Source: Bacteroides sp. CAG:545 (GTDB lineage Bacteria > Bacteroidota > Bacteroidia > Bacteroidales > UBA932). Taken from it: a stretch of DNA of 64,000 bases. How positions within the stretch are numbered: position 1 is the stretch's first letter; each line of letters starts with the position of its first letter. The translations under genes were made by a program, and so were the position numbers. The DNA is taken from contig HF996057.1 in NCBI GenBank assembly GCA_000432515.1, forward strand, positions 2,905-66,904, given 5' to 3'. Positions 1,435 through 64,000 of this stretch are shown piece by piece. The notes under the pieces are model-generated. The model searched no databases and had not been told where the DNA came from. It was given only the letters and a program-made list of their open reading frames with translations.

Positions 1435-3527
1435 ATGAAACGAACACGGATTTGCCGTTTCTTGGCAGTCCTGACGATGATTTCGTCAAACCATTTTTCT
1501 GCGTTTTCAGCAGGAGGCAGTCCTGACGATGATTTCGTCAAACCATTTTTCTGCGTTGTCAGCAGGAATTTCAGACTCATTCAAAAAGAACATTGTACTG
1601 GATTCAGTATCGGTCACGGGGGCAAGAGTGCCTATGGCATTGGGCAAGAGCACACGAATCGTGACATTGCTGGACAGCACGGCGGTGGCGTCCCTGCCGG
1701 TGGTAAGTGTCAATGACGTGCTCAAATATGTGGCAGGCATCGACGTGCGGCAGCGAGGCGACATGGGCGCGCAGACGGATATTTCCATGCGCGGCGGTAC
1801 GAGCGACCAGGTGGCCGTCTTCCTTAACGGCATCAATATCTGCGACCCGCAGACAGGCCACAATGCAGTAGATTTCCCTTTTGATGTCAATGACATTGAC
1901 CATATCGAGGTCCTTTCCGGGCCGGCAGGCGTGGCTTACGGTTCGTCTTCCCTTGTCGGGGCCATCAACATTGTCACGAAAAAGCCTGTGGGAAAGGAAG
2001 TTGCGGCGCATGTCGAAGGCGGCTCCTATGGCTATTTCAATGGCGGAGCACGTCTGGGCATCGTTACGGGAAAAGTCACAAACCAGATTTCGGCAAGTTA
2101 TCTGCGCTCAGACGGTTTTAGCCGCAATGCTGACGGTGGGCTGAATACCGACTATGAGACGGTCAAGGCTTATTATCAGGGCGGTTTCACTTCTGCAAAG
2201 GCGGATGTGGACTGGTTTACCGGCATAAGTCTGCGCGATTTCGGCTCCAATACATTCTACAGCGCCAAGTTCGACAACCAGTTCGAGCATACGTTCAAGT
2301 CTTTTGTGGCTGTCAAGGCCCAGACAAAGGGTTTTGTGAAACTCAGGCCTGAATTCTACTGGAACCGTGGTCAGGACAGGTTCGAACTTGTACGCGGCGA
2401 TGAATCCAAAGTTCCGTTCAACTATCACCGTACCAGTGTTTTAGGTGGTGGTTTGACGGCCTGGATAGAGACCGTGGCAGGCAAGACCGCGCTCGGTGCC
2501 GATGTCCGAGATGAAGACATTATCAGTACCAATCTTGGTGAGGACCTCGAATCTGTCAAGAAAGTAGGGAAGGCCGAGTACAAGAAAGGGCTCAGGCGCA
2601 CGAATTACAGTATCTATCTCGAACACAGTTACGAATACCTCAATCTGGCTGCTACAGCCGGTGTCGCGGCGGGGGAGGATACCCGAAAATACGAGCCCTT
2701 CTACTCCCATGGCGGTGAAGAATACCGGAAATGACGAGCCTTTCAAGTTCTATCCGGGAGTGAATCTGAGTTACCGCTTTTTGGGCGACTGGAAGGTGTA
2801 TGCATCGTATAACTCTTCATTGAGAATGCCTACTTTTACGGAACTGTATTATTCCGTGGGCGGACATCAGGCCGACAAGAATCTGAAGGCAGAGAAAATG
2901 CAGTCTGTGGAAGGCGGTCTGAAATTCTCGAGGCCGTGGCTAAATGCCGTTCTGACAGTGTATTACAATATGGGACGCAATATGATTGACTGGACCAAGG
3001 ACTTGTCGGAAGGGACCAATGCAGAGTGGCGTTCTGGCAATTATACCAGGGTCAATGCCTTCGGTCAGGAACTTTCCGCAAGGGTGGATTTCCCGGCCTT
3101 GCTTGTCCGTGATGATTTCTTCCTGAGAAATCTGGATGTCGCGTTCAGCCACATTGACCAGGACAAGAAACTTGGAGCGGATGTGCAGTCAAAATATGCA
3201 TTGGAATACCTTAAATATAAGGTGGTGGTGAAGGCCGGTTTCCATATCTGGAAGGGCTTGTGCGCAGATGCTTCGTGGAGATGGCAGGACCGGGAAGGCA
3301 ATTATGAACTCTTCGAGAACAAGGTCTCCAAGGGAATGGTGCCGTATCGTCCATATTCATTGGTCGATGCTCGTGTGTCATGGAGCGAGGTGCGTCGCGG
3401 AATTTCCTATAATATATATGCTGAGGTGAACAATGTGCTGAACCACAAGTATTTCGACTATGGCAATGTGCCTCAGCCGGGTATAATTGCCAAGGCTGGA
3501 CTTGTAGTGGGCTTCGGCCGCAGATAA
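1435..3527 (+). pseudogene. TonB-dependent outer-membrane receptor (plug plus beta-barrel), disrupted by a 52-bp tandem duplication near the 5' end and a second +1 frameshift near 2680-2735
   Basis: Three consecutive frames carry one protein: 1435 (MKRTRICRFLAVLTMISSNHFSA..), 1529..2734 (TonB box DSVSVTGA, plug motifs DISMRGG, IEVLSGPAGVAYGSS) and 2661..3527 (beta-barrel strands ending ..GLVVGFGRR). Removing one copy of the duplication restores MKRTRICRFLAVLTMISSNHFSALSAGISDSF.. in frame. Confidence 0.7.
1464..1567 (+). repeat. Perfect-but-one-mismatch 52-bp tandem duplication (2 copies) inside the TBDR signal-peptide coding region
   Basis: ggcagtcctgacgatgatttcgtcaaaccatttttctgcgtt(t/g)tcagcagga occurs at about 1464-1515 and again at about 1516-1567. 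Because 52 is not a multiple of 3, the duplication shifts the frame. Confidence 0.9.
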
Positions 3528-4288
3528 TGAACGAAATGGAACTGACTATTCCTACTCCGCGGGGAGATATCTTCGCCATATATACAGAGGGATACGCTTC
3601 TGAATCAATGTGCCCTGATGACGACTCCGGGCGTGGACCGTTGGTGATACTGTGCCACGGACTGATGATGAACTGCAGGCAGAATCCGATTATGGGTTTT
3701 GCCTCCAGTCTCAACAAGGCCGGATATGATACGTTGCGTTTCGATTTTCGTGGAAGCGGACTCAGCAGCGGCGATATCACTGAAATGACTCCGCTTACGG
3801 AAGTGGATGACTTGAAGGATGTTGTCGCACACTACAAGGACAGACGTATCGTGCTCTGCGGCCATTCGTTGGGCGGTCTGGTTTCATTGATGACGGCTGC
3901 CGAGAACCAGTCAATTTCAGCATTGGTCCTGTTGGCCCCGGCAGTGAACATTGAACTTGATTCCAGGGCAGGGCGTGTCGCCATCGAGACTTTCGATCCT
4001 GTCAATATCCCGGAATTTGTGGAAGTCTGGGGTTCAAGGCTTTCGAGGTCTTACTTCACCACAGCGCAGAATTTGGGGATATTTGAAAGAATAGCTAAAT
4101 ACAAGGGGCCTGTCTGTGTCCTGATGGGCGAAAGGGACAGGATCGTGGAGCTGAATCTTTCCGAAAAACTGCAGGAGGCATTGCCGCAGGCTCAGATTCA
4201 TGTCATTCCTCATGCCGACCATCTGTTTTCCAGAGGTATCCGTCTGAAGGCTGCAGCTGTCGCTGTGGATTTCCTGCGCAATTTTTAA
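3527..4288 (+). CDS. alpha/beta-hydrolase fold protein
   Basis: 253-aa ORF with a GHSLGG nucleophile elbow (GxSxG). Its start overlaps the TBDR stop (TAATG). Confidence 0.7.
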   Translation: MNEMELTIPTPRGDIFAIYTEGYASESMCPDDDSGRGPLVILCHGLMMNCRQNPIMGFASSLNKAGYDTLRFDFRGSGLSSGDITEMTPLTEVDDLKDVVAHYKDRRIVLCGHSLGGLVSLMTAAENQSISALVLLAPAVNIELDSRAGRVAIETFDPVNIPEFVEVWGSRLSRSYFTTAQNLGIFERIAKYKGPVCVLMGERDRIVELNLSEKLQEALPQAQIHVIPHADHLFSRGIRLKAAAVAVDFLRNF

Positions 4289-4377
4289 GGGCTCATTTAT
4301 ACGTTTTAGGCGGAAAATAGTTAAATTAGCAGTTTGTCAGCGGTGTGCTGGCAAGACCTATTATTAATAATCAAGAT

Positions 4378-5745
4378 ATGGTAAGATTTGTCAAAGAGCC
4401 GGCAAGAGACATTCCGGTGAAAGATGAGGTGGATATTCTGGTTGTCGGCGGAGGCCCTTCCGGAATTATGGCAGCAAGGGCTGCAGCCGGTAAAGGGTTG
4501 AAAGTCATGCTTATAGAAAGCAGGGGATATGTAGGTGGCAATCTCACCATCGGTCTCCCGATTCTGGGGTTCCTCGGAAGGAAGGGAAATCAGGTAGTAG
4601 AAGGCCTGCCCCAGATGCTTATCGACAGATTGCGCGCGAATGGCAAGGCGTCTGAACATAAGCCTTGCAAGAATCACGTCAGTCTGACCATCATTGACCC
4701 GGAAGAGGTAAAGGATGTGGCTCTCGGAATGCTCGAGGAAGTAGGCGTGAAAATTCTGTTCTACGTTTTCTGCTCAGATGTCATCAAGGAGGGCAATGAG
4801 GTGAAAGGCGTGATCGTCGAGAGCAAGGAAGGCCGTGAAGCGATTCTTGCGAAAACCGTCATTGACTGTACCGGTGACGCAGACGTGGCTTACCGTGCAG
4901 GCGTAGAATGTCACAAAGGCGACAAGGACGGCGGAATGCAGCCTCCTACACTTATGTTCTGTATGAGAGGGGTCAATGTTCCTGAACTCCGCGATGCCAT
5001 AGTGAACCATCACGAAGAATATGATATGGACGTGATGCCGCCTGAGCAGTTCAAGGAAGGGCCGTTCATCGTGGTCGGTTTCAGAAACAAGATCAATGAA
5101 GCCCGCGAAAAGGGTTATTCGATTCCTGTAGCGAGGACCATCCTCATTACCGGACTTGCGGATGATGAGATCTGGGTCAATATGTCCAGAGTCTGCGGAG
5201 TGGACTCCACGAAACCGGAAAGCTACACCAACGGTGAAATCACTGCTCGTACGCAGAATGATGAAATCGAAAGATATCTGCGTGACTTCATACCGGGATT
5301 TGAACATGCATGGAGAGACAAGGTCGCTTCATTTATGGGAATACGCGAAAGCCGTGTGATAAAAGGCAAATATGTGTTGACGGCGGATGATATCCTTTCC
5401 TGCCGCAAATTCGAGGACTCGATAGGTGTGGCAAGTTATCCTGTGGATATCCATCACAGTCACGGAGATGACTGCACTATGATGTGGTGCCCGGACTGTT
5501 ACGACCTCCCTTATCGTATGCTCGTGCCGGAAAATGTTGAGAATCTGCTTGTTGCGGGACGTTGTGCATCGATGACGCATGAGGCTATGGCTTCAGCCCG
5601 AGTGATGTCCACCTGTATGGTGATGGGCGAGGGCGCAGGAAGAGCTGCCCGAATCGCAATCGAGGAAGGAGTGCCTGTTTCCAAGGTCAATGTGGAAGAA
5701 GTCCGGAAGGACCTGCGTGAAAGCGGAGCGTATCTCAGAGACTAA
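4378..5745 (+). CDS. FAD-dependent oxidoreductase
   Basis: ORF track 4345..5745 begins with GTG. The first ATG at 4378 gives MVRFVKEPARDIPVKDEVDILVVGGGPSGIMAARAAA, which contains a Rossmann GxGxxG FAD-binding motif. Confidence 0.65.
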   Translation: MVRFVKEPARDIPVKDEVDILVVGGGPSGIMAARAAAGKGLKVMLIESRGYVGGNLTIGLPILGFLGRKGNQVVEGLPQMLIDRLRANGKASEHKPCKNHVSLTIIDPEEVKDVALGMLEEVGVKILFYVFCSDVIKEGNEVKGVIVESKEGREAILAKTVIDCTGDADVAYRAGVECHKGDKDGGMQPPTLMFCMRGVNVPELRDAIVNHHEEYDMDVMPPEQFKEGPFIVVGFRNKINEAREKGYSIPVARTILITGLADDEIWVNMSRVCGVDSTKPESYTNGEITARTQNDEIERYLRDFIPGFEHAWRDKVASFMGIRESRVIKGKYVLTADDILSCRKFEDSIGVASYPVDIHHSHGDDCTMMWCPDCYDLPYRMLVPENVENLLVAGRCASMTHEAMASARVMSTCMVMGEGAGRAARIAIEEGVPVSKVNVEEVRKDLRESGAYLRD

Positions 5746-5780
5746 TAGGCAATCACACATCTTTAATACACTGAACCGAC

Positions 5781-6686
5781 GTGAAAACATTGAAATACAT
5801 ACTTTCAGCTGCATTGGCATTGACAATGACAGTAGCGGCGACAGCCAAGATAGTGCGTGCTCCACAGGAAAAAGGCACGCACAGGGTCTTGACCTGCAAT
5901 ATCCGAATTACCGGACTCAGCGAGGACGAAAATACTCCGGGCCAATGGGAAAACAGGAAGGAGGTCTGCAGGGACGTGATTCTTTCGCAGAAACCTGACA
6001 TCATCTGCATGCAGGAGGTGATCTATGAGTCGTATGCATATATGAAGAAGGAACTCAAGGGCTATACTTCATTCGGCTTTACCGGGCCGGAGATGGATCC
6101 GTACACTGAAGGATATCATTACATCGGCAAGAATGTGATTTTCTTCAGGACTTCGAGGTATGAAATGACCGGTTCCGGCTGCTATTGGCTTTCTGAAGAT
6201 CCGCTTATCGGTGGCAGCCTTTCATGGAACACGACTCGTGCGAGACATTGTAACTGGCTGAGACTCAGAGATAAGAAAACAGGAGAGGAGTTCCGCATAA
6301 TGGATATCCATCTGGACCACAAGACTGAGCTGGCTCGTCAGGAACAGACCAAACTGACTATTCGCGAGACCTCGCAGTATGCGGAAGATTTTCCGCAGAT
6401 CCTGTGCGGTGATTTCAATTCCGGACCGAAGAAGGCGGCAGCAGGGTTTTTGCGTGAGGCCGGATGGAAAGACGCTTATGAGACGCTCGGCATCCCTGAA
6501 CGGAATTCGTTCCATGGATTCAAGGGCGAGAATTATAAGAAACCGAAGCCGAGAATCGACTTCATCTTCATGCGCGGTGCTGTGCAGCCTTTGTATTGCA
6601 AGATGCTGACGGATACTGTCAATGGTATTCTACCGAGTGACCATTATTTCATTGTGGCGGATTTGAAGATAGGAAATAACGACTAA
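5781..6686 (+). CDS. Secreted endonuclease/exonuclease/phosphatase (EEP) family protein
   Basis: 301-aa ORF with a GTG start. It has an N-terminal signal peptide (MKTLKYILSAALALTMTVAATA) and EEP-like motifs (ICMQEV; D..H near the C-terminus, PSDHYF). Confidence 0.6.
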   Translation: MKTLKYILSAALALTMTVAATAKIVRAPQEKGTHRVLTCNIRITGLSEDENTPGQWENRKEVCRDVILSQKPDIICMQEVIYESYAYMKKELKGYTSFGFTGPEMDPYTEGYHYIGKNVIFFRTSRYEMTGSGCYWLSEDPLIGGSLSWNTTRARHCNWLRLRDKKTGEEFRIMDIHLDHKTELARQEQTKLTIRETSQYAEDFPQILCGDFNSGPKKAAAGFLREAGWKDAYETLGIPERNSFHGFKGENYKKPKPRIDFIFMRGAVQPLYCKMLTDTVNGILPSDHYFIVADLKIGNND

Positions 6687-6697
6687 ATTTTCGATAT

Positions 6698-8068
6698 ATG
6701 ACATCAGACCAGGCCGGAATCAGGCAATACATTGAGGAAAACAAGGACAGGTTCTTCGAGGAACTGTTCTCGCTTATGAGAATACCTTCGGTCAGCGCGA
6801 AGCCGGAGAACAAACAGGACATGTGGAAGTGTGCGGAGCGTTATGCCGAACTTCTCAGGGAGGCCGGTGCAGATGAGGCCGGTGTGTTCCCGACAGAGGG
6901 GAATCCTGTAGTCTTCGGGCAGAAGATCATTGACCCGACATGTAAGACGGCATTGGTTTACGGCCATTATGACGTGCAGCCGGCAGAACCGCTCGAAAAA
7001 TGGAACTCGGATCCTTTCGAGCCGGAAATCCACGACGGAGCCATCTGGGGACGCGGTGCCAATGATGACAAGGGCCAGACTTTTATGCATGTGAATGCTT
7101 TCGAGTACCTTGTAAGGAACGGACTGCTCAAGCACAATGTGAAATTCATCTTCGAAGGTGAGGAGGAAGTCGGCAGCAAGAATCTTCCGGCCTGGGTCGA
7201 AGCTAACAAGGAAAGGCTTGCCTGCGACGTGATTCTCGTTTCGGACACGACCATGTTGTCAGACAAGGTGCCTTCCATCAACTGCGGAATGCGCGGCGTG
7301 ACTTATCTTCAGGTCAATGTCAAGGGACCTGACAAGGACTTGCATTCAGGACATTACGGCGGGGCTGTGGCCAATCCGATAAATACCCTGTGTGATATGA
7401 TTTCGTCATTGATAGACAAGGACGGAAGAGTCACCATTCCGGGGTTCTATGACGATGTGGAGGAACTTTCTGCTGAGGACAGGGCTTCACTCGCACGTGC
7501 GCCGTTCGATATGGAAGAGTATAAGGAAAGCATCGGCGTCAAGGAAGTCAAGGGCGAAAAGGGCTACACTACGCTTGAGCGTACGGCGATAAGACCTTGT
7601 CTGGATGTATGCGGAATCTGGGGTGGCTACACTGGAGCAGGCAGCAAGACGGTGCTTCCGTCAGAGGCTCATGCCAAAATTTCCATGCGCATCGTGCCGA
7701 ACCAGAAGGCTGACAAGATCATTGACCTGGCTGCAAAGCATATCCTCGCGATAGCGCCTCCTTATGTCGAGGTCAGCGTCGAGAAGATGGAAGCAGGAAA
7801 CGGATTCCTGATCCCGATCACTTCTCCAGCTTACAAGGCAGCATCCCGTGCGATGACGGAAGTCTATGGTATTGAGCCTGTTCCAAGTCGTGGCGGCGGC
7901 AGTATCTGTGTGCTTGCGGACATGAGGAACATTCTCGGTGCGGACCCTCTGCTGATGGGCTTCGGTCTTGAGCGTGACACCATCCACTCTCCGAACGAGA
8001 GTTATCTGCTCCGTCAGTTCTATGCGGGAATTGAGTCTATAACCCTGTTTTACGAATATTGGAAATAA
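6698..8068 (+). CDS. M20 family dipeptidase (ArgE/DapE/PepV-like)
   Basis: 456 aa with metal-binding motifs typical of M20 (YGHYDVQP, GRGANDDKG, EGEEEVGS). Confidence 0.8.
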   Translation: MTSDQAGIRQYIEENKDRFFEELFSLMRIPSVSAKPENKQDMWKCAERYAELLREAGADEAGVFPTEGNPVVFGQKIIDPTCKTALVYGHYDVQPAEPLEKWNSDPFEPEIHDGAIWGRGANDDKGQTFMHVNAFEYLVRNGLLKHNVKFIFEGEEEVGSKNLPAWVEANKERLACDVILVSDTTMLSDKVPSINCGMRGVTYLQVNVKGPDKDLHSGHYGGAVANPINTLCDMISSLIDKDGRVTIPGFYDDVEELSAEDRASLARAPFDMEEYKESIGVKEVKGEKGYTTLERTAIRPCLDVCGIWGGYTGAGSKTVLPSEAHAKISMRIVPNQKADKIIDLAAKHILAIAPPYVEVSVEKMEAGNGFLIPITSPAYKAASRAMTEVYGIEPVPSRGGGSICVLADMRNILGADPLLMGFGLERDTIHSPNESYLLRQFYAGIESITLFYEYWK

Positions 8069-8084
8069 TCATAATAAACTAATA

Positions 8085-9221
8085 ATGAACGAATTGAATA
8101 CCATACTGGGAAATTTCGCGATTGAGGGCGAAATCAGTGAAATCAAGCCTCTCGGCAACGGACTTATCAATGACACTTACAAGGTGACCACAGCCGGCGA
8201 TGCGCCTGACTATGTGCTGCAGCGGATCAACAATGCCATCTTTCAGGATGTGGACATGCTTCAGAACAATATCGAGGCTGTAACTTCCCACATCCGCAAG
8301 AAACTTGTCGAGGCAGGGGAAAATGACATTGACCGTAAAGTGTTGAGATTTATTCCTTTGAAGGACTCGGCCAAGACTTATCTTGAGGTGGACGGAAAGT
8401 TCTGGAGAGTGTCTGTTTTCATTCCTGACGCCTACACTTACGAGACTGTAAATCCGGAGTATTCTTACTGTGCCGGCAAGGCTTTCGGAAATTTCGAGTC
8501 AATGCTTTCTGACCTCGACACCGAGCTCGGCGAGACAATTCCTGATTTTCACAATATGGAACTCCGTATGGCTCAGCTTATCGATGCCGTGGAAAATGAC
8601 TGCCGCTGCAGGATTGACGAACCGGAAGAAGGCGACGGAAGGGAGCCTATTGCTGATGACCCTGACCACAGTGACGAGGTTGTGGCAATGCTGGATGACA
8701 TCGACGAGCACAGTGAAGAGATGTGCAAAGCTGAGCGTATGTATCGCGACGGGCAGCTGCCTAAACGTATCTGCCACTGTGATACCAAGGTCAATAACAT
8801 GATGTTCGACAAGGATGGCAACGTCTTGTGTGTTATCGACTTGGATACTGTGATGCCGAGCTTTGTGTTCTCGGATTTCGGTGATTTCCTGCGCACTGCG
8901 GCCAATACCGCGCCTGAGGATGAGCCGGATACTTCCAAGATCAGTTTCAATATGGATATCTTCAAGGCGTTCGCACGTGGATATATCGAGTCCACCAAAG
9001 GCTTCTTGACTGACGTGGAGAAGGAGAATCTGCCTTATGCTGCATGTATGTTCCCGTTTATGCAGGCTGTGAGGTTCCTCGCTGACTATCTTAACGGCGA
9101 CACCTATTTCAAGACCAAGTACATCGACCATAACTTTGTCCGCGCGCGTGCCCAGATGGCTCTGTTCCACAGCGCAATGGAGCATCGTCAGGAGATGACC
9201 GACTTCATCAACAGCCTGTAG
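8085..9221 (+). CDS. APH-fold anomeric sugar kinase, N-acetylhexosamine 1-kinase (NahK)-like, with an acidic insertion
   Basis: 378 aa. Blocks align to Bifidobacterium NahK as I recall it: IEGEISEIKPLGNGLINDTYKV, HCDTKVNNMMFD, IDLDTVMPSF, FLADYLNGDTYFKTKY. An extra acidic segment (DEPEEGDGREPIADDPDHSDEVVAMLDDIDEHSEEM) precedes the catalytic loop. Confidence 0.65.
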   Translation: MNELNTILGNFAIEGEISEIKPLGNGLINDTYKVTTAGDAPDYVLQRINNAIFQDVDMLQNNIEAVTSHIRKKLVEAGENDIDRKVLRFIPLKDSAKTYLEVDGKFWRVSVFIPDAYTYETVNPEYSYCAGKAFGNFESMLSDLDTELGETIPDFHNMELRMAQLIDAVENDCRCRIDEPEEGDGREPIADDPDHSDEVVAMLDDIDEHSEEMCKAERMYRDGQLPKRICHCDTKVNNMMFDKDGNVLCVIDLDTVMPSFVFSDFGDFLRTAANTAPEDEPDTSKISFNMDIFKAFARGYIESTKGFLTDVEKENLPYAACMFPFMQAVRFLADYLNGDTYFKTKYIDHNFVRARAQMALFHSAMEHRQEMTDFINSL

Positions 9222-9232
9222 TCTGCCAAGCG

Positions 9233-9733
9233 ATGCTACGTGAAAATCTTGTTGTTCGAAAATCCGTGCCAGAGGACATTGACCGTCTGAAAGACATTTT
9301 CGCTCACGCCAGGCTTTTCATGGAAAGCACCGGCAATCCCGACCAGTGGGGAGACGGCTACCCGAGCGAAGAGCTCATTTTGGATGATATCAGCAGTGGT
9401 GACAGCTACGTCTGCGTCTCGGAAGGACGTGTTGTCGCCACTTTCGTCCTGCGCGGCGGTGAAGACCCGACCTATGCGCAAATATATGAAGGCCAATGGC
9501 TTGACTCCGCACCATACGCCACCATCCACCGGATTGCCTCTTCCGGAGAGGTGAAGCACATCTTCCACGCCGTGGTTCACTTTGCATTGACCCGCTACGA
9601 CAGCATCCGTATCGACACCCACAGCGCGAACAAAGTCATGCAGGCGGCCATCCTCAAGGAAGGATTCCGCTACTGTGGCGTCATCCGCTGCTGGAACGGT
9701 ACGGAACGTCTTGCCTATCAGTATGTTAAGTGA
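9233..9733 (+). CDS. GNAT family N-acetyltransferase
   Basis: 166 aa in the typical GNAT size range. Assigned by overall resemblance. Confidence 0.55.
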   Translation: MLRENLVVRKSVPEDIDRLKDIFAHARLFMESTGNPDQWGDGYPSEELILDDISSGDSYVCVSEGRVVATFVLRGGEDPTYAQIYEGQWLDSAPYATIHRIASSGEVKHIFHAVVHFALTRYDSIRIDTHSANKVMQAAILKEGFRYCGVIRCWNGTERLAYQYVK

Positions 9734-12483
9734 TTGTGGATTGTCCTGAACATGTCCGGGATGATCAGAATCGGTGACGTGAAGAGAAGGATGATTCCCC
9801 AATCCTGGAGAGACAGAGCTTCAACATTGAAAGCTGGGCCGCAAAAATTCACGATAATGAACTGGCCGGCGAGAATTACGAAAGCGATGATGACAAATCC
9901 GCGTCCTATGGCTTTCTTTCCTTCCTTCGGGTTCTTGAACAGCATGACAAGGTCGCCCAGCAGACTTCTGCCAGTCCTGAAGAACCTTGCATTGAACAGA
10001 TTCCAGAACTGCAGCACAACGAAAATTGAGAAGAAGATGCCTTTCTCGTAAGTGGTCAGGACATTGTCCGCAGTGTGGCCGGACAGGAATTCCGTAAAGA
10101 ATGACTTCATTGCTTCTTTAGTGAAAAGGCCGTTCATGCTGGTAATGTCCAGATGCCAGAGAACCTGCCACAGAAGAGCCAGGTATATGAAGAAGCAGAT
10201 GCTCACGGAGAATATCGACTTGGCCATCTTTCTGTCGATTATATGGCTCTTTGGACTACGTGGCTTCTCGTTCATCACTTTAGGATCGGCAGGCAACGAA
10301 GACAGAGCCATGGCCGCGAATGTATCCATAATCAGATTCACCCAAAGCATCTGTGTGACTGTCAGCGGGGATTCCATTCCGATGAATGAACCCAAAAGCA
10401 CCACAAGGCAGGCACATACGTTGATTGTCATCTGGAAGAGAATGAACCTCTTGATATTCAGATAGATGGAACGTCCCCAGAGGATGCCCGTATTGATGCT
10501 TGAGAACGAATTGTCGATTATGGTGATGTCGCTTGCCTCTTTCGCCCTTGCCGTGCCGTCTCCCATTGACAAACCGACCTGAGCCTTTTTGAGTGCAGGA
10601 GCGTCATTGGTCCCGTCTCCGGTTACAGCTACCACTTCGCCCATCCTTTGCAGCAGGGTGACAAGTCTGGCTTTGTCTTCCGGCTTGGCTCTGGACAATA
10701 TCTTAAGGCGCGGAATGATCTTCATGGCCTGTTCATCCGACATCTCCTCAAAGGATTGGCCGCTCAATGTCAGGTCCTCTCCACCATCATTGATGATGCC
10801 CAATTCACGTCCTATCTCATTGGCCGTCACTGCCACGTCGCCGGTAACCATTATCACCCGAACACCTGCTTTCCCTTGACACATATCTATGGCGTCTTTT
10901 ACATCAGGACGAACAGGATCGGCTATCCCGACCATTCCGACGAATGTGAGATCGCCTTCATTTCCGTCAGGGTCAATGTATTGTGCGGCAAATGCGAGCG
11001 TTCTCATCGCTTTGCTTTGCCACCCGTTCAGCGTGTCCTTGATATTTTCGGCAGTTGCACTCTCAGGGAAAGCGGTGCATCGGGAAATGATTATCTCAGG
11101 TGCTCCTTTCAGCAGCCGGATCTTTCCGCCCTTCACGTCAGGATTCTCAATGAGCGTCTCCATGCTTTTCGTCAATGAAGAGAAACTCTTCCTGTCCAGT
11201 ATGGTGCAATCTTCTCTAATCTGAAGATAATCAATGCCTTTCTCTTCTTTTAACCACATCAGCAGTGCTCCTTCAGTCGGATTGCCGATAGCCTTGACAT
11301 TGCCATCTTCATCCTCGGACAGGCCGGCTGTAGCGTTTATAGCAATGCTCCTGCTGATAATGTCATCGTTTCCGAAGAACTGTGATTGAAGGACTTTCAT
11401 CTTGTTTTCCGTGAGAGTGCCGGTCTTGTCAGTACAGATGACCGTGGTCGCTCCCATTGTTTCGCATGCGTGCAGTTTCCGGACAAGATTCTTCTCCTTG
11501 AGCATCTTCTTCATGCTCAGCGCAAGACTGATGGTAATGCTCATCGGAAGTCCTTCAGGAACAGCCACTACAATCAGGGTCACAGCTATCATTATCGAAC
11601 TCAGCACGTATTCCAGAATCTGGACTATGTCAGTGTTGTTGTCAATGTTCCCGTCCAGGAAGAAATAATAGAAAAGTCTCCCCACTACTATAAGGCCGGC
11701 AATGATGTAGCTTACCTTAGTAATCATATCGCCCAGATTGTCAAGCTGTTGCGAAAGGGGAGTGGTGACTTCCTGTTCTTCCTGAATCAGTTTTGCGCCC
11801 TTTCCTTCCTCCGTGTCAGTTCCGACAGCAGTCACGCGACAAACACACAGCCCCTCGATAATCGTGGAACCGCGCAGGACCATGTTCGCCGGGAAAGTAG
11901 TATCTTGTTTGCCTTCAGGTACAGTTACATATTTGTCAGCATAGAGCTCACCGGTGAATATGGATTCGTCCACCTTCAGGGAGGCTGCTTCGAGGACAAT
12001 GGCATCCGCAGGCACCTCATCTCCGCTTTCTAGCTGGACAATATCCCCGACACAGACATCGCATTTGCGTATTTCGTAGAACTGTGTCTGTCTGCCGTTG
12101 CTGGACTTTCGGATTACCTTGACCGGTCTTTCATCCTTGACCTTGTTCAGCACTTCAAACTCTTTCTCGGCGCGTACCTCAAATATGAAACCGATACCGG
12201 TAGCAAGCAGAATCGCCACAAGTATCCCGGCGGGCTCTATCAGGGATGATGCCGGTTTTCCAAGCCAATACACCTCATATACGGATACGATTACCGAAAA
12301 GACCAATACTACGAGCAGAATGATTATGATCGGGTCCCTGAACTTGTCCAGGAACTTCTTCCACAGAGATTCTTTTTCCGCTTCGGGTATAATGTTCTTT
12401 CCGGCTCCGTTCACCACTTCCGGAGAGCCTTGCGCAAGGCAGCTTGATAAGTATGATTTGTTCATCTTTGGGGTGATTGTCAT
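9718..12483 (-). CDS. Calcium-translocating P-type ATPase (PMCA/SERCA-type cation pump)
   Basis: 921 aa with the phosphorylation motif CTDKTGTLTENKM, the hinge motif VTGDGTNDAPALKKAQVGLSMG and 10 predicted transmembrane segments. Confidence 0.9.
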   Translation of the reverse strand: MTITPKMNKSYLSSCLAQGSPEVVNGAGKNIIPEAEKESLWKKFLDKFRDPIIIILLVVLVFSVIVSVYEVYWLGKPASSLIEPAGILVAILLATGIGFIFEVRAEKEFEVLNKVKDERPVKVIRKSSNGRQTQFYEIRKCDVCVGDIVQLESGDEVPADAIVLEAASLKVDESIFTGELYADKYVTVPEGKQDTTFPANMVLRGSTIIEGLCVCRVTAVGTDTEEGKGAKLIQEEQEVTTPLSQQLDNLGDMITKVSYIIAGLIVVGRLFYYFFLDGNIDNNTDIVQILEYVLSSIMIAVTLIVVAVPEGLPMSITISLALSMKKMLKEKNLVRKLHACETMGATTVICTDKTGTLTENKMKVLQSQFFGNDDIISRSIAINATAGLSEDEDGNVKAIGNPTEGALLMWLKEEKGIDYLQIREDCTILDRKSFSSLTKSMETLIENPDVKGGKIRLLKGAPEIIISRCTAFPESATAENIKDTLNGWQSKAMRTLAFAAQYIDPDGNEGDLTFVGMVGIADPVRPDVKDAIDMCQGKAGVRVIMVTGDVAVTANEIGRELGIINDGGEDLTLSGQSFEEMSDEQAMKIIPRLKILSRAKPEDKARLVTLLQRMGEVVAVTGDGTNDAPALKKAQVGLSMGDGTARAKEASDITIIDNSFSSINTGILWGRSIYLNIKRFILFQMTINVCACLVVLLGSFIGMESPLTVTQMLWVNLIMDTFAAMALSSLPADPKVMNEKPRSPKSHIIDRKMAKSIFSVSICFFIYLALLWQVLWHLDITSMNGLFTKEAMKSFFTEFLSGHTADNVLTTYEKGIFFSIFVVLQFWNLFNARFFRTGRSLLGDLVMLFKNPKEGKKAIGRGFVIIAFVILAGQFIIVNFCGPAFNVEALSLQDWGIILLFTSPILIIPDMFRTIHNHLTY

Positions 12484-60851: not shown

Positions 60852-62162
60852 ATGGATACTGAAAAGATGAATCGACTGCTTCCTCCCCTTCCGGAAAGGA
60901 TGAGACCGCGTAATCTGGACGAATATGTAGGGCAAAAACACCTTGTAGGAGATGGTTGCGTGCTGCGGAATATGATAGCCGGCGGCAATTTGTCCTCATT
61001 CATATTGTGGGGACCTCCGGGTGTGGGAAAAACATCATTGGCCCGGATTGTGGCCAACTCATTGGACCGGGAATTCTACACATTGTCCGCCGTCAGTTCC
61101 GGCGTCAAGGATGTGCGCGAAGTCATCGACAAGGCCAAGGCTGACAAGTCTTCGATGTTTGGTACAGGAAAAGGTGCTCCGATTCTTTTCATTGATGAGA
61201 TTCACCGTTTCAACAAGGCTCAGCAGGATGCTCTTCTGGGAGCAGTGGAGGACGGTACGGTAGTACTGATAGGCGCGACTACGGAAAATCCGTCTTTCGA
61301 GGTCATCAATCCTCTGCTTTCGAGGTGTCAGGTGCTGGTGCTCAAGTCATTGGAAAAGGATGACCTTCAGCATCTGCTCGACAGGGCGCTGACTGAAGAC
61401 GAGATTCTAAAGCATAAGGATATCAAGGTCAATGAAGCTGAGGCGCTTTTCCGCTATTCCGGCGGTGACGCGCGTAAGTTGTTGAATCTGTTGGAGATAG
61501 TGGTGGACTCGTTTGCTGGTGTCGAGCATATCGTAATTGACAACAAGACTGTGGAGTCCTGTCTTCAGACCAATGCATCACGTTATGACAAGGGCGGCGA
61601 TATGCATTATGACATAATTTCCGCGTTTATAAAAAGCATCAGAGGTTCGGATCCGAATGCTGCCATATATTATCTGGCGAGGATGCTTGACGGTGGCGAA
61701 GACCCGAAATTCATCGCAAGGCGCCTGTGCATCTCTGCTTCTGAGGATATCGGACTGGCGAATCCCAATGCTCTTCTTCTGGCCAATGCCTGTTTCCAGA
61801 CTGTGTCTTCTATAGGTATGCCTGAAGGCAGAATCCCATTGGCGGAGACGACTATATATCTGGCTTCTTCTCCTAAGAGCAACTCAGCGTATCTTGCCAT
61901 AAACGAGGCTATGCAGGTGGCGTCGCAGACTCAAGCTGAAAGTGTGCCGATGCCGCTTCGGAATGCCCCGACCAAACTTATGGAAGAGCTTGGCTATAAC
62001 GACGGCTACAAGTATTCTCACGATTTTCCGGGTCACTTTGTGGATCAGGAATATATGCCAGAAGGCCTGAAGGGCAAGGTCTTCTACCAGCCGGCCGAAA
62101 ACCGCCACGAAGACGTCCTCGCCGCCTACCTCAAATCCTGCTGGCCCAAGTACTACAAATAG
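60852..62162 (+). CDS. rarA: Replication-associated recombination protein A (AAA+ ATPase)
   Basis: 436 aa with Walker A GPPGVGKTSLARIVAN, Walker B ILFIDEIHRF and a MgsA C-terminal domain. Confidence 0.85.
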   Translation: MDTEKMNRLLPPLPERMRPRNLDEYVGQKHLVGDGCVLRNMIAGGNLSSFILWGPPGVGKTSLARIVANSLDREFYTLSAVSSGVKDVREVIDKAKADKSSMFGTGKGAPILFIDEIHRFNKAQQDALLGAVEDGTVVLIGATTENPSFEVINPLLSRCQVLVLKSLEKDDLQHLLDRALTEDEILKHKDIKVNEAEALFRYSGGDARKLLNLLEIVVDSFAGVEHIVIDNKTVESCLQTNASRYDKGGDMHYDIISAFIKSIRGSDPNAAIYYLARMLDGGEDPKFIARRLCISASEDIGLANPNALLLANACFQTVSSIGMPEGRIPLAETTIYLASSPKSNSAYLAINEAMQVASQTQAESVPMPLRNAPTKLMEELGYNDGYKYSHDFPGHFVDQEYMPEGLKGKVFYQPAENRHEDVLAAYLKSCWPKYYK

Positions 62163-62216
62163 AGTGTGGTCTTGCGCAACCTGTAAGTCGCTGTGTGATA
62201 ACTGTTTAACTATTTT

Positions 62217-62251
62217 CAGAGTTAGTATTTTCCTAACTCTGATTTTGATTA
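62217..62251 (+). terminator. Candidate rho-independent terminator downstream of rarA
   Basis: CAGAGTTAG-tattttcc-CTAACTCTG followed by attttgatt. Confidence 0.45.
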
Positions 62252-62943
62252 AATAATTGATAATCTGTAACTTACGCGCTGCGCCTCGTGCCGCCGAACT
62301 CCAAGTGTGTACGGCAACAAGAAGCCCCTGTGAGGACCAGGCCCTCCCACTATCAAAAAAAGGGTAACCTGGCTTTTAGAGATCTCGACAATTCATTGAT
62401 AATCAACAATGTCCACAGAATACCGACATGCAGGTTGTCCGATAATTGACGCGTGAGTCCTTGCAGAACGACTGCATCGTCAGTGTCGGAACCGAACTTG
62501 ACATCTGGTTGTATCGCACCCATGTCAGCTCGTACAACCTTGCTGCAAATGCCGGAATCGCTGTTTCTTTTGCTCCCATGTTAATCTATTCTTGACATTT
62601 CCATGGGCAAAAGTACGGAACCGCTAAAAACGCTTCAATACGTAACCGCGAAGACGCTTACGAGAATCTGTCCTGAATATGTATAACCGGCAACAATGGC
62701 TTCGTTGAGTCAGCATGGATGTTTAGTTTTTTGCAGTGCGATGTGTATTGGATGACAGGTCCTCCTTTCTTGTGTGAGTCCGCATCGATAGATAAAGCGA
62801 GACGCTTACGAAAATCTGACCTGAATATGTGTAACCGCAACAATGGCTTCGTTGAGTCAGCATAGATGTTTAGTTTTTTCGGTGCGATGTGTACTGGATG
62901 ACAGGTCCTCCTTTCTTGTGTGAGTCCGCATCGATAGATAAAG

Positions 62944-63127
62944 CCACTTCTCTCTGGCGATTGCTAATAGAGGTGGCTGATGGGTGATTTGGGAAGGATA
63001 GCTTCGTGCGTTTTCGAACAACCTGCATGTCGGGATTTGGCACATATTGCTGACTGTCAATGAGATAGAATAAATATACAAATGCAGGTTATGTGAAAAA
63101 GCGGGTAACCTGGCTTTTGCTTTATTA
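62944..63127. repeat. Repeat unit B copy 1 (184 bp)
   Basis: cacttctctctggcgattgctaatagaggtggctgatggg...caacctgcatgtcgggatttggcacatattgctgactgtcaatgagatagaataaatatacaaatgcaggttatgtgaaaaagcgggtaacctggcttttgctttattag. It contains an internal 9-bp long-range inverted repeat (aacctgcat/atgcaggtt). Confidence 0.85.
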
Positions 63128-63237
63128 GCTAACCAGCTATGAATCAACACTTTCGCTGGCTGCGTGAATTTCAGGTTATTCGGTTTTTCCAAATAACAAT
63201 AGTCCGGTCAAGACGTAATCGCGGAGACTAGATAAAG

Positions 63238-63421
63238 CCACTTCTCTCTGGCGATTGCTAATAGAGGTGGCTGATGGGTGATTTGGGAAGGATAGCTTCG
63301 TGCGTTTTCGAACAACCTGCATGTCGGGATTTGGCACATATTGCTGACTGTCAATGAGATAGAATAAATATACAAATGCAGGTTATGTGAAAAAGCGGGT
63401 AACCTGGCTTTTGCTTTATTA
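63238..63421. repeat. Repeat unit B copy 2 (identical to copy 1)
   Basis: Direct comparison of the sequences. Confidence 0.85.
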
Positions 63422-63487
63422 GCGTGCGATGAGTACTGGATGACAGGTCCTCCTTTCATGTGAGAGTTCGGATCGATAGATAAAGCC

Positions 63488-63669
63488 ACTGCTCTCTGGC
63501 GATTGCTAATAGCAGGTGGCTGATGGGTGATTTGGGAAGGATAGCTTCATGTGTTTTCGAACAACCTGCATGTCGGGATTTGGTGCATATTGCTGAATGT
63601 CAATGAGATAGAATAAATATCCAAATGCAGGTTATGTGAAAAAGCGGGTAACCTGGCTTTTGCTTTATT
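63488..63669. repeat. Repeat unit B copy 3 (about 95% identical, few substitutions)
   Basis: Direct comparison of the sequences. Variants include cactGctctct, atagCaggtgg, ttcAtgTgtt and tggTgcat. Confidence 0.8.
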
Positions 63670-63950
63670 GTTTAACGTGTTGTGAATCAATGCTTTCGCC
63701 GGTTGTGTAAATTTCAGGTTGTTCGGTTTTTCCAAATAATAATAGTCCGGTCAAGACGTAACCGCGTATACGCTTACGCAAACTTTTATGGGAGCTAAAT
63801 GCTTATCGGGCGATACGGAGCGCCGAACAGCGGCATAGCCCGCGGCGAATTGCGAAACTCCCTGAGCTGAGCGTGCTCTTGCCGCAGTTCGGGACAATAT
63901 CAATGAAGGACGACGGGGGGCAAAAGGCGGGTTTTTGCACACAAGATTTC

Positions 63951-63995
63951 AGTCACGGGGGGGGCAAGAAGGCCTGATTTGCCCCCGTGACAGTT
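63951..63995. other. GC-rich perfect hairpin (13-bp stem) within a GC-rich tail at the window end
   Basis: GTCACGGGGGGGCAA-gaaggcctgatt-TGCCCCCGTGAC. The surrounding 63784-64000 is about 60% GC, unlike the repeat array. Confidence 0.5.
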
Positions 63996-64000
63996 CAAAA

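Follow-up and report, generated by a model that had tools for sequence, protein, structure and literature searches.

Pneumococcal BOX elements are built as boxA-boxB(n)-boxC, and the tandem amplification of DNA by unequal crossover between directly repeated insertion sequence (IS) copies or ends is a general bacterial mechanism. Mosaic intergenic repeats have been described in E. coli as BIMEs (PMC2817692), and IS elements are associated with BIME/REP-type intergenic repeats (PMC1525189). We found no Bacteroidales intergenic repeat families described in the literature that match the modules discussed here, which form an array downstream of rarA in a 64 kb stretch of DNA (the whole stretch analysed, hereafter the window) and which, as in BOX elements and BIMEs, are reused in variable order at intergenic sites. 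We put at roughly 60% the probability that this array is a strain-specific tandem amplification, with partial deletions, of one ~440-bp non-coding A-B-C segment lying between direct 28-bp ends of an IS66-family element.

Units, junctions and flanks of the array

The order A A B C B A' B C given in the original prediction, with B present three times and two of its copies identical, was reproduced by BLAST, TRF and alignment, and the repeats are far beyond chance (BLAST E-values 1e-138 to 1e-163). The array is limited to 62.35-63.78 kb, and no part of it recurs elsewhere in the 64 kb window (BLAST). All of its units lie on the plus strand. Units A1 (62652-62798) and A2 (62799-62944) are 94% identical (TRF period 146); the first ~10 nt of A1 are the outer end of the IS66 inverted repeat, and A2 starts with GAGACGCTTAC, the last 11 nt of that repeat. 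Features of unit B1 (62945-63128, 184 nt) are a hairpin on its 5' side, the inverted repeat AACCTGCAT/ATGCAGGTT and, on its 3' side, a conserved tail that ends in GGGTAACCTGGCTTTTGC; an inverted repeat within B had been predicted and is indeed present, at 63008-63028 and 63082-63102. Unit C1 (63129-63228) consists of non-IS sequence (63129-63189) followed by IS66 right-end positions 2751-2789 (63190-63228, 92.3% identical), cut 6 nt short of the IS terminus. Next comes a 10-nt remnant of the tail of A, TAGATAAAGC (63229-63238), at which an exact repeat of 195 nt begins (62935-63129 = 63229-63423), so that unit B2 (63239-63422) is 100% identical to B1. Unit A' (63424-63486), the last 63 nt of A, and unit B3 (63487-63671, 185 nt, 94.6% identical to B1 and closest to related loci L010 and L024) are of a second allele type, and alignment distinguishes two diverged allele types of the unit within the window. 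Unit C2 (63672-63777), about 85% identical to C1, ends in a complete IS66 right end (63733-63777, IS positions 2751-2795, including the 28-bp inverted repeat).

Two shorter words recur across these units where no occurrence is expected by chance: the 16-mer GGGTAACCTGGCTTTT occurs four times in direct orientation in the window, and the 15-mer CAACCTGCATGTCGG three times directly and once inverted (62423-62437). The proposed junction motif GATAAAGC was said to end every A and C copy ahead of B. A1 ends in this motif before A2, C2 does not carry it, and the TAGATAAAGC ending attributed to C1 is the 10-nt A-tail remnant described above. Judged by the canonical single-copy unit, GATAAAGC is no junction signal but the last 8 nt of A, which there precede B.

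Four junctions of this region were absent from the 65 related loci examined: A1|A2 (GATAAAGC|GAGACGCTTAC), C1|A-tail, that is C1|B2 (CGCGGAGAC|TAGATAAAGC), B2|A' (TTATTAGC|GTGCGATG), and the junction between the left half of palindrome P and the piece we call frag (62354|62355). The first three are blunt, have no microhomology and lie away from the IS repeat. Furthermore, contigs encoding an identical RarA end or diverge at 62334-62361, and the array structure is therefore backed by one assembly only. These observations bear on whether the tandem order could be an assembly artefact, formed from mis-joined or gap-filled reads of paralogous copies and strain alleles at a locus that really holds one A-B-C. 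The absence of all four novel junctions from related loci and the ending or divergence at 62334-62361 of short-read contigs with the same RarA are consistent with such an artefact, as are the placement side by side of two allele types found separately in other strains and the 100% identity of A1 and C1 to the A and C of the single copy in one related locus (L029). The RarA of the window is also exactly that of the 2013 MAG 'Bacteroides sp. CAG:545', so the window could be a short-read, pooled-sample assembly. However, no k-mer is shared at the blunt junctions; walking a de Bruijn graph from one canonical copy to another cannot generate them, and spanning reads must therefore exist. Multi-unit or duplicated arrangements also occur in independent assemblies, with two B-like units in L043, a second A after C in L051 and a local duplication of a block piece in the Mb-scale contig L070. 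We consequently regard an artefact as unlikely.

The sequence to the left of the array is itself modular. Element T (62172-62290, plus strand) is a long imperfect hairpin in which a terminator scan located the rarA intrinsic terminator (stem-loop at 62216-62242, then a T run), and it is a repeated module with T-like copies in L017, L033, L035 and L065. It is followed by the left half of palindrome P (62313-62354, unstranded); P is ~104 nt long and complete in L007 (11462-11565), and its right half is absent here. Then comes frag (62355-62445, unstranded), in which a direct copy of the B tail (62355-62377, including GGGTAACCTGGCTTTT) is joined to an inverted copy of the B middle (62393-62445, 77-81% identical, including the inverted 15-mer). 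The predicted combination of direct and inverted pieces of B upstream of the array is thus present, but frag is not the isolated relic that was supposed: it is a conserved piece of the canonical block in 12 other loci, preceded there by a further diverged B-like piece. To the right of the array, the sequence we call 'right' (63778-64000, plus strand) holds, in decayed and frameshifted form, the 5' part of a small HTH-like ORF (ATG at 63789) and is a paralog of a 106-113-aa ORF found after rarA in other strains, whose 113-aa version gives a weak HTH_28 / IS3-OrfA-like signal (Pfam, NCBIfam). In the closest strains, the sequence past 'right' runs through GC-rich hairpin repeats to a convergent Omp85 gene, suggesting that the array sits between the convergent genes rarA and Omp85, where such DNA would be tolerated.

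The copy number and context of the block in related strains indicate that a single unit is the usual state. At rarA, conspecific strains carry one A-B-C (L007, L010, L011, L024, L025, L049, L054 and L055), and four Mb-scale contigs carry the canonical block once, upstream of enolase and downstream of a 5S rRNA gene. The block adjoins 5S/23S in L033, L035, L037 and L046 and is also found at other gene junctions, at least 6 different contexts being counted on its left and about 10 on its right; across these loci T, P, frag, A, B, C, 'right' and a 102-nt hairpin repeat are combined differently. The intergenic modules change faster than the flanking genes: strain-to-strain identity is 77-86% for T and 91-98.5% for ABC, versus 97-99% for those genes. 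Identities of 93-100% between modules suggest that the rarA copy and other copies may coexist in one genome. We also considered whether the block is an obligatory 3' flank of rrn operons and rejected this: two loci have it beside 5S, yet from rarA the sequence runs on to Omp85, and a diverged family at metK has no rrn nearby. A scan of species representatives with the 20-mer GCGGGTAACCTGGCTTTTGC gave three chance hits only, all in unrelated bacteria, and neither BLAST against plasmids and phages (array, diverged B family and iteron-like region) nor a pattern scan of viral contigs gave a match.

IS66 ends and probable amplification of the array

The repeat bounding the array (62640-62662 and 63756-63778) can be assigned by its sequence to the terminal inverted repeat of an IS66-family insertion sequence. 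The full 28-bp repeat lies at 62634-62661 (minus strand) and 63750-63777 (plus strand), and the 89% identity between the end of C2 and the start of A1 (63751-63778 and 62635-62662) bears out the earlier observation that one recapitulates the other. Its left copy belongs to a truncated IS66 left end (62440-62661, minus strand; IS positions 1-222) with 92.8% identity to the IS66 of L069 (E = 1e-91); the outer end of the 28-bp terminal repeat of this truncated piece is at 62661. This left end carries a Bacteroidetes -7 box, TACTTTTG (62608-62615), and the start of tnpA (first 58 codons, 62403-62579, minus strand, ATG at 62579); in L069 the same frame continues, giving a product of 136 aa, and is succeeded by tnpB and by a DDE_Tnp_IS66 transposase. 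The IS66 of L069 is intact, 2795 bp long, with perfect 28-bp inverted repeats (IRL/IRR) starting GTAAGCGTC, and published IS66 repeats begin likewise with GTAAGCGTC (PMC12888890). The boundary pieces of the window show the ~20-30 bp terminal repeats beginning GTAAGCG that mark the family; of TnpA, TnpB and the DDE transposase, present as a full set in L069, the window holds the tnpA start only. Its IS66 pieces are remnants, not an IS. An 8-bp target-site duplication was found neither in the flanks of the L069 element (GGTTGTTC vs CGGACTAT) nor as matching flanks at the window remnants.

The 28-nt boundary repeat was also considered as a dif-like Xer site, given its quasi-palindrome and the possibility of IMEX-style tandem integration, and this was rejected because the repeat is the IS66 terminal repeat; GC skew showed no sign of a terminus either. 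That the units might prove to be pieces of a mobile element had been named at the outset as grounds for refuting the original reading, and this is partly the case: IS66 sequence makes up the boundary repeat, the 222 nt leftward of it and the 3' end of both C units, whereas neither A nor B nor the initial 61 nt of C is IS66 sequence.

With an inverted IS66 left end at the array boundary and an IS66 right end closing each C, the end of C joined to the start of A makes up the IS terminal repeat. Two 28-bp IS ends in direct orientation therefore flank A-B-C, an arrangement well known to permit unequal crossover. A first tandem copy would have arisen by replication slippage or unequal homologous recombination involving these two ends, and the ~440-bp repeats so formed could then have recombined further. 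The junctions A1|A2, C1|B2 and B2|A' may reflect later, illegitimate duplication or deletion events in this hairpin-rich DNA. Since these three internal junctions are off the IS repeat and have no microhomology, a simple crossover accounts for the unit boundaries only, not for the final order.

The association with IS66 ends also bears on the suggestion that the array grew as a small non-autonomous element, which could be MITE-like or rely on IS66 for mobilisation in trans, inserted repeatedly with GATAAAGC as its target. Such an element might be expected from modules that occur in many genomic contexts and variable combinations, from the physical association of IS66 ends with the block and from the IS66 end footprints stacked downstream of metK. 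Nevertheless, the supposed target is the internal A/B boundary of the single-copy unit, neither terminal inverted repeats nor target duplications are found at A, B, C or the block, and the flanking IS66 ends are direct rather than inverted, an arrangement from which no transposase could excise the segment. Copies are sparse (about ten contexts were found, with none elsewhere in 62 kb of the window), and viral contigs, plasmids and phages yielded no matches. Iterated insertion is very improbable on these grounds.

The evidence points to local amplification that came about as an ordinary side effect of repeats recombining with one another, rather than to an array of RNA genes or a shufflon, and the array needs no function of its own. 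The locus offers a caution in that IS scars and unequal recombination in a hairpin-rich intergenic 'junkyard' can mimic shuffled cassettes. The block also interrupts assemblies made from short reads for this gut Bacteroidales species, which is prevalent and uncultured, and marks a hotspot of strain structural variation at rarA/Omp85 and at an rrn flank, and the defined 2795-bp IS66 element can now be used for annotating the lineage.

Coding potential, RNA structure and inversion

The region was originally described as non-coding, modular, shaped by recombination and distinct from CRISPR, rRNA and tRNA loci, and our analyses agree. Variable sites fall 40/34/30 over the three codon positions, ORFs of the array have no Pfam or NCBIfam match (nor do the flanking small ORFs, save the weak signal of the 113-aa ORF), and exact-protein look-ups for ORFs within or beside the array returned no record. 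A small protein read from the minus strand across C-B-A was rejected: its frame reaches at least 80 codons in many copies but shows no codon periodicity and is broken in B3. A scan of the window found no tRNA or tmRNA. A CRISPR array was likewise rejected, as the units are 63-185 nt long, the 'spacers' are themselves repeated and there is no cas-like ORF, and so was a diversity-generating retroelement with template and variable repeats, since the copies do not differ specifically at adenines and no coding target is present.

One feature of the array sits poorly with a neutral model, which does not explain it: the last ~50 nt at the 3' end of B (CCAAATGCAGGTTATGTGAAAAAGYGGGTAACCTGGCTTTTGC) hardly vary between two subfamilies with strongly different interiors, part of this invariance being imposed by the search pattern. 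B, or the whole of A-B-C, might therefore encode a structured regulatory RNA or a cis-acting attenuator or terminator whose dosage the array multiplies. The conserved 3' part could switch between hairpins, AACCUGCAU/AUGCAGGUU versus CAGGUUA/UAACCUG followed by a U-rich tail, and the shared middle arm pairs with either partner. Each of the four changes seen in this arm (three A-to-G, one C-to-U) leaves both helices with wobble pairs, though on the plus strand only, the Y hairpin varies between C-G and U-G (9 vs 16 sequences), and the fold of A-B-C reaches z = -2.4 on the plus strand versus -1.2 on the minus strand. Covariation, however, does not favour an RNA: among 25 distinct B sequences, double changes occur in 0/19 and 0/7 pairs, in a test weakened because the search pattern fixed one arm of each helix and so inflated apparent conservation. 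The inner helix is broken in 11% of cells, shuffled controls do equally well (198 of 500 shuffles reach the observed percentage paired), and B alone and its 3' part give z of -0.9 to -2.0 on either strand. Neither compensatory changes nor stability above that of shuffled sequences (z -0.9 to -2.4 overall) thus supports the small structured RNA array first proposed. Rfam, searched at permissive thresholds with the window and 8 related loci, matched no family at E <= 1 and returned only sub-threshold chance matches (SNORA72 at the rarA terminator and some miRNA/snoRNA models). There is also no Bacteroidetes promoter consensus upstream of B on the plus strand, orientation to neighbouring genes is inconsistent, and most strains carry one copy. 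A structured RNA is accordingly quite improbable.

A related but separate reading, on which we place a similarly low probability, is that the 3' ~110 nt of B are a functional, undescribed cis-element, comprising AACCTGCAT...ATGCAGGTT, the overlapping CAGGTTA...TAACCTG hairpin and a T-rich tail. Conserved between the two diverged subfamilies, this segment occurs where genes end and on the downstream side of rrn operons, and it could act as a switchable terminator or attenuator RNA, or as a binding site for a protein or transposase that attracts IS66 insertions. If this reading were true, the triplication in the window strain would have a dosage effect, and a true terminator/attenuator or IS target would constitute a modest new family of cis-elements in Bacteroidales.

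The inverted copy of the 15-mer within frag raises the further question of inversion, and the original prediction had included a shufflon-like region served by a recombinase encoded beyond the window. In such a system, an inverted repeat of 15-20 nt would let a site-specific recombinase flip a promoter-bearing segment between alternative partners. The window has the inverted 15-mer without mismatch, and L033 and L034 have a perfect match over a 20-mer; the copy at 62423-62437 has three same-orientation partners (63019-63033, 63313-63327 and 63562-63576); the enclosed segment has the consensus -7 box TACTTTTG; and an 'IS66 end + promoter' segment is oppositely oriented in L017 and L069. Yet that promoter belongs to IS66 tnpA, and of the two loci with the opposite orientation one is the intact IS66 (L069) and the other is without any B (L017). 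Wherever the promoter segment and B occur together (16 related loci and the window) a single orientation is found, in 17 of 17, and the left partner site is decayed in L037, L042, L031 and L064 with no matching change opposite. In related strains, the 10 kb to either side hold no gene for a recombinase. The repeat does not fit ARACGTWCGT, the Mpi consensus of B. fragilis. We therefore think an invertible segment extremely improbable. In one strain (L055) an integrase-like ORF is found 6 kb downstream, which is not general.

Comparison with described repeat families and mobile elements

Of the described systems, IS66-family elements (IRL-tnpA-tnpB-DDE tnpC-IRR) match this locus at the array's boundary repeat (GTAAGCGTCTCCGCGGTTACGTATTGAC), across the 222 nt that precede the array and over the final 39-45 nt of each C. 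In contrast to these elements, the window holds truncated ends only, directly oriented and with no transposase gene, and is thus not a transposable unit; none of A, B and the opening 61 nt of C is IS66 sequence.

Bacteroidales invertons and shufflons resemble the locus in the short perfect inverted repeat around a segment of ~580 bp, or about 430 bp where the block is single-copy, with a consensus Bacteroidetes promoter. Here, however, there is no orientation polymorphism in 17 loci, partner sites are decayed, no recombinase is adjacent and the promoter is that of tnpA.

The array is also comparable to BOX elements and to BIMEs/REPs, in which non-coding hairpin modules are reused in variable order and number at intergenic positions after gene ends, often between convergent genes. 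The modules of the array, at 60-190 nt, have no sequence similarity to either family, and no RAYT-type transposase was seen; roughly ten contexts were found for them, with none other in 62 kb of the window, whereas REP and BOX exceed 100 copies in a genome.

Amplification by unequal crossover between direct IS repeats, the process behind our preferred reading, likewise involves an IS-flanked segment whose copy number varies by strain and whose unit boundary is the IS repeat. The array differs from such amplifications in that its repeats are 28 bp rather than a whole IS, no gene is amplified and three blunt rearrangements followed.

Unit structure of the array downstream of rarA

Reading of 60.8–64.0 kb together with repeat-finding tools bore out the predicted order A1 A2 B1 C1 B2 A' B3 C2 at 62652–63777, in which A' is the last 63 nt of A. 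B1 and B2 show no differences, the exact repeat extending over 195 nt (62935–63129 = 63229–63423); B3 is 94.6% identical to B1, A1 94% identical to A2 and C1 about 85% identical to C2. No further copies of A, B or C were found in the 64 kb window. The two short motifs singled out in the original prediction each occur four times in the window (0 expected by chance), and the 15-mer motif is indeed inverted at 62423–62437. GATAAAGC, noted as a conserved junction, proved to be the final 8 nt of A at the A/B boundary of a normal unit, and its copy at the C1 end is a 10-nt leftover of the A tail. Nor is the inverted fragment at 62355–62445 (frag, a direct B tail plus an inverted B-middle copy) isolated, being an invariable component of a canonical block found at several loci.

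The rarA gene ends at 62162, with an intrinsic terminator at 62216–62242. In other strains a GC-rich palindrome of ~104 nt follows the terminator (11462–11565 in L007; L-numbers denote related loci or contigs fetched for comparison). The window has its left half only (62313–62354); it is within this palindrome that short-read contigs carrying precisely the window's RarA break off or diverge.

A modular block dispersed over several loci

A gapped B pattern retrieved 39 human-gut metagenome loci (one match per locus), on which the modules were then mapped. The canonical block runs T - (diverged B piece) - frag - mid - A - B - C - right, where T is a hairpin module with the rarA terminator, mid a promoter-bearing IS66-end segment and right, in the window, a decayed 5' part of a small HTH-like ORF. 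It is present at the rarA locus, upstream of enolase (downstream of a 23S-5S rRNA operon), at a third locus adjoining a 181-aa ORF and at others besides, with at least 6 distinct left flanks and about 10 distinct right flanks over the loci. In each of four Mb-scale contigs (L066, L067, L068, L070) a single canonical block is present, between enolase and 5S. A diverged subfamily (B identity 80–86%), with B combined with other modules, occupies loci such as phosphoglycerate mutase, metK and tRNA/parAB. A contig bearing a diverged B-like unit (L053) also has a SAM-II riboswitch at 6753–6811, above the Rfam gathering score and ~430 nt upstream of metK (about 6985–8301, same strand in Rfam's coordinates).

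Across both subfamilies the 3' ~50 nt of B hardly vary, although the adjacent loop is strongly different. The shared middle arm shows few changes, and these stay wobble-compatible on the plus strand in either alternative hairpin, the second of which has a T-rich tail after it; the pairing test is biased by a search pattern that fixed one arm of each helix. The conservation is a hint that the 3' part of B acts as a cis-element (e.g. a terminator, attenuator or binding site), a reading of low probability.

At the protein level the window's RarA does not differ from CCZ43926.1 of 'Bacteroides sp. CAG:545', an uncultured member of the Bacteroidales from the human gut. Contigs that code for precisely this protein break off or diverge at 62334–62361; those of other strains in the same RarA cluster (97–98% rarA nucleotide identity) span the region. 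(Part of A)-B-C occurs once, over about 390 bp, in L007, L010, L011, L024, L025, L049, L054 and L055, and in the five long enough to judge Omp85 context (L007, L024, L025, L049, L055) this single block has rarA on one side and a convergent Omp85 gene on the other. The unit has two allele types: A2-B1-C1 of the window is nearest to L007 (95.6%), A'-B3-C2 to L024 (98.5%) and L010 (95.9%). The right flank (63778–64000) is closest to L011 and L055, where GC-rich hairpin repeats lead on to Omp85. Strain-to-strain divergence is higher in the modules than in neighbouring genes.

In some strains an inserted 106–113-aa ORF, weakly HTH_28/IS3 OrfA-like with a coiled-coil tail, directly follows and overlaps the rarA stop codon (L008, L009, L017, L024, L025; about 11280–11622); the window has a paralog of its 5' end at 63789–63840, with a frameshift, and L010 has an intact 52-aa version. 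A GC-rich hairpin repeat of ~102 nt (CATCATCAGATGCCGGGCCG...GGCCCTGATG...) forms a tandem pair ahead of the Omp85 stop in L007 (11975–12185) and recurs in rrn-flank blocks, the diverged family and many other loci. L024 carries a microvirus-like prophage (1598–6991; Phage_F capsid, REP_ORF2-G2P replication protein, four small ORFs) between genes for a Na/Pi cotransporter and a small outer-membrane protein, a site without it in the window and L007. One strain alone, L055, has an ORF of 407 aa (9028–10251) some 6 kb downstream of the block, and its N-terminus is typical of tyrosine integrases of Bacteroidetes. The finding suggests a strain-specific mobile-element insertion.

IS66 ends at the unit boundaries

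At its enolase locus, L069 contains an intact IS66-family element of 2795 bp, with 28-bp perfect terminal repeats (GTAAGCGTCTCCGCGGTTACGTATTGAC), tnpA (136 aa), tnpB and a DDE_Tnp_IS66 transposase; a published IS66 repeat starts with the same GTAAGCGTC (PMC12888890). In BLAST of this element against the window, IS positions 1–222 matched 62661–62440 on the minus strand (92.8%, E = 1e-91), 2751–2795 matched 63733–63777 and 2751–2789 matched 63190–63228. From these matches, A-B-C lies between two directly oriented 28-bp IS ends, and each C is a composite in which 61 nt that do not come from the IS are followed by its right end. The end of C2 does recapitulate the start of A1, as originally noted, but what is repeated is the IS66 terminal repeat. 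By the same matches, the conserved promoter box TACTTTTG (62608–62615) is that of IS66 tnpA, and the 58-codon minus-strand ORF is the 5' end of tnpA.

Partial IS66 terminal repeats are also stacked in tandem just 3' of metK in L072 and L071 (about 11353–11405), as GTAAGCGTCTCCG, GTAAGCGTCTCCG, GTAAGCG and GTAAGCGTCTCCGCGGTTACG, with the look of end footprints repeated at a single site; they are followed by a T-like hairpin and the small HTH ORF. Beside the intact IS66 of L069, six iteron-like copies of TCACGGACAAGT (about 6150–6360, minus strand) lie near genes for a resolvase and a large serine recombinase. This motif also forms overlapping hairpins upstream of diverged B-like units (e.g. L030, L061, L063), and no plasmid match was found for the iteron-like region.

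Function and origin of the array

Codon periodicity was absent from the array (variable sites 40/34/30 over codon positions), array ORFs had no domain matches and the longest minus-strand frame is broken in B3. An Rfam search of the array returned no family, and RNA fold stability z-scores were -0.9 to -2.4. Among 25 distinct B cores, 0 pairs had changed on both sides, shuffled sequences performed as well as the real data in this covariation test, and the inner helix of B is disrupted in 11% of cells. Inversion, as in a shufflon, found no support: 17/17 loci are oriented alike, and several copies have a decayed left partner site. No recombinase gene adjoins the locus, and the array had no plasmid, phage or viral-contig matches.

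The array is most likely a local amplification of DNA flanked by IS66 scars, part of a mosaic intergenic repeat family of low copy number. An unlikely alternative is that assembly created it: all four novel junctions of the window are absent from the other loci, and its source may be a short-read MAG. Multi-unit arrangements of modules do occur in L043 and L051, and the 3.05-Mb contig L070 has a second partial IS66 left end (IS66 positions about 44–187 plus terminal repeat) upstream of its canonical block (about 9380–9550 in locus coordinates; 849–1021 reverse-complemented). Local duplications thus occur here in an independent Mb-scale contig, and these cases together indicate a region structurally plastic in nature.

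Under local amplification, the window order is compatible with four units and, inside them, three blunt junctions: A1|A2, where the IS repeat is reduced to its outer 11 nt; C1|B2, where the IS end is kept up to GAGAC before the 10-nt A tail; and B2|A'. Microhomology is absent at all three, which points to illegitimate events in hairpin-rich DNA, and the two allele types with the perfect 195-nt duplicate show at least one old and at least one very recent event. We regard the array as real-looking but ordinary, its repeat family belonging to an uncultured gut Bacteroidales species. One unequal crossover or slippage between IS ends would have given [A-B-C-IS end] twice, and the resulting ~440-bp repeats could then expand and contract, direct repeats around a segment being the usual starting point for such events.
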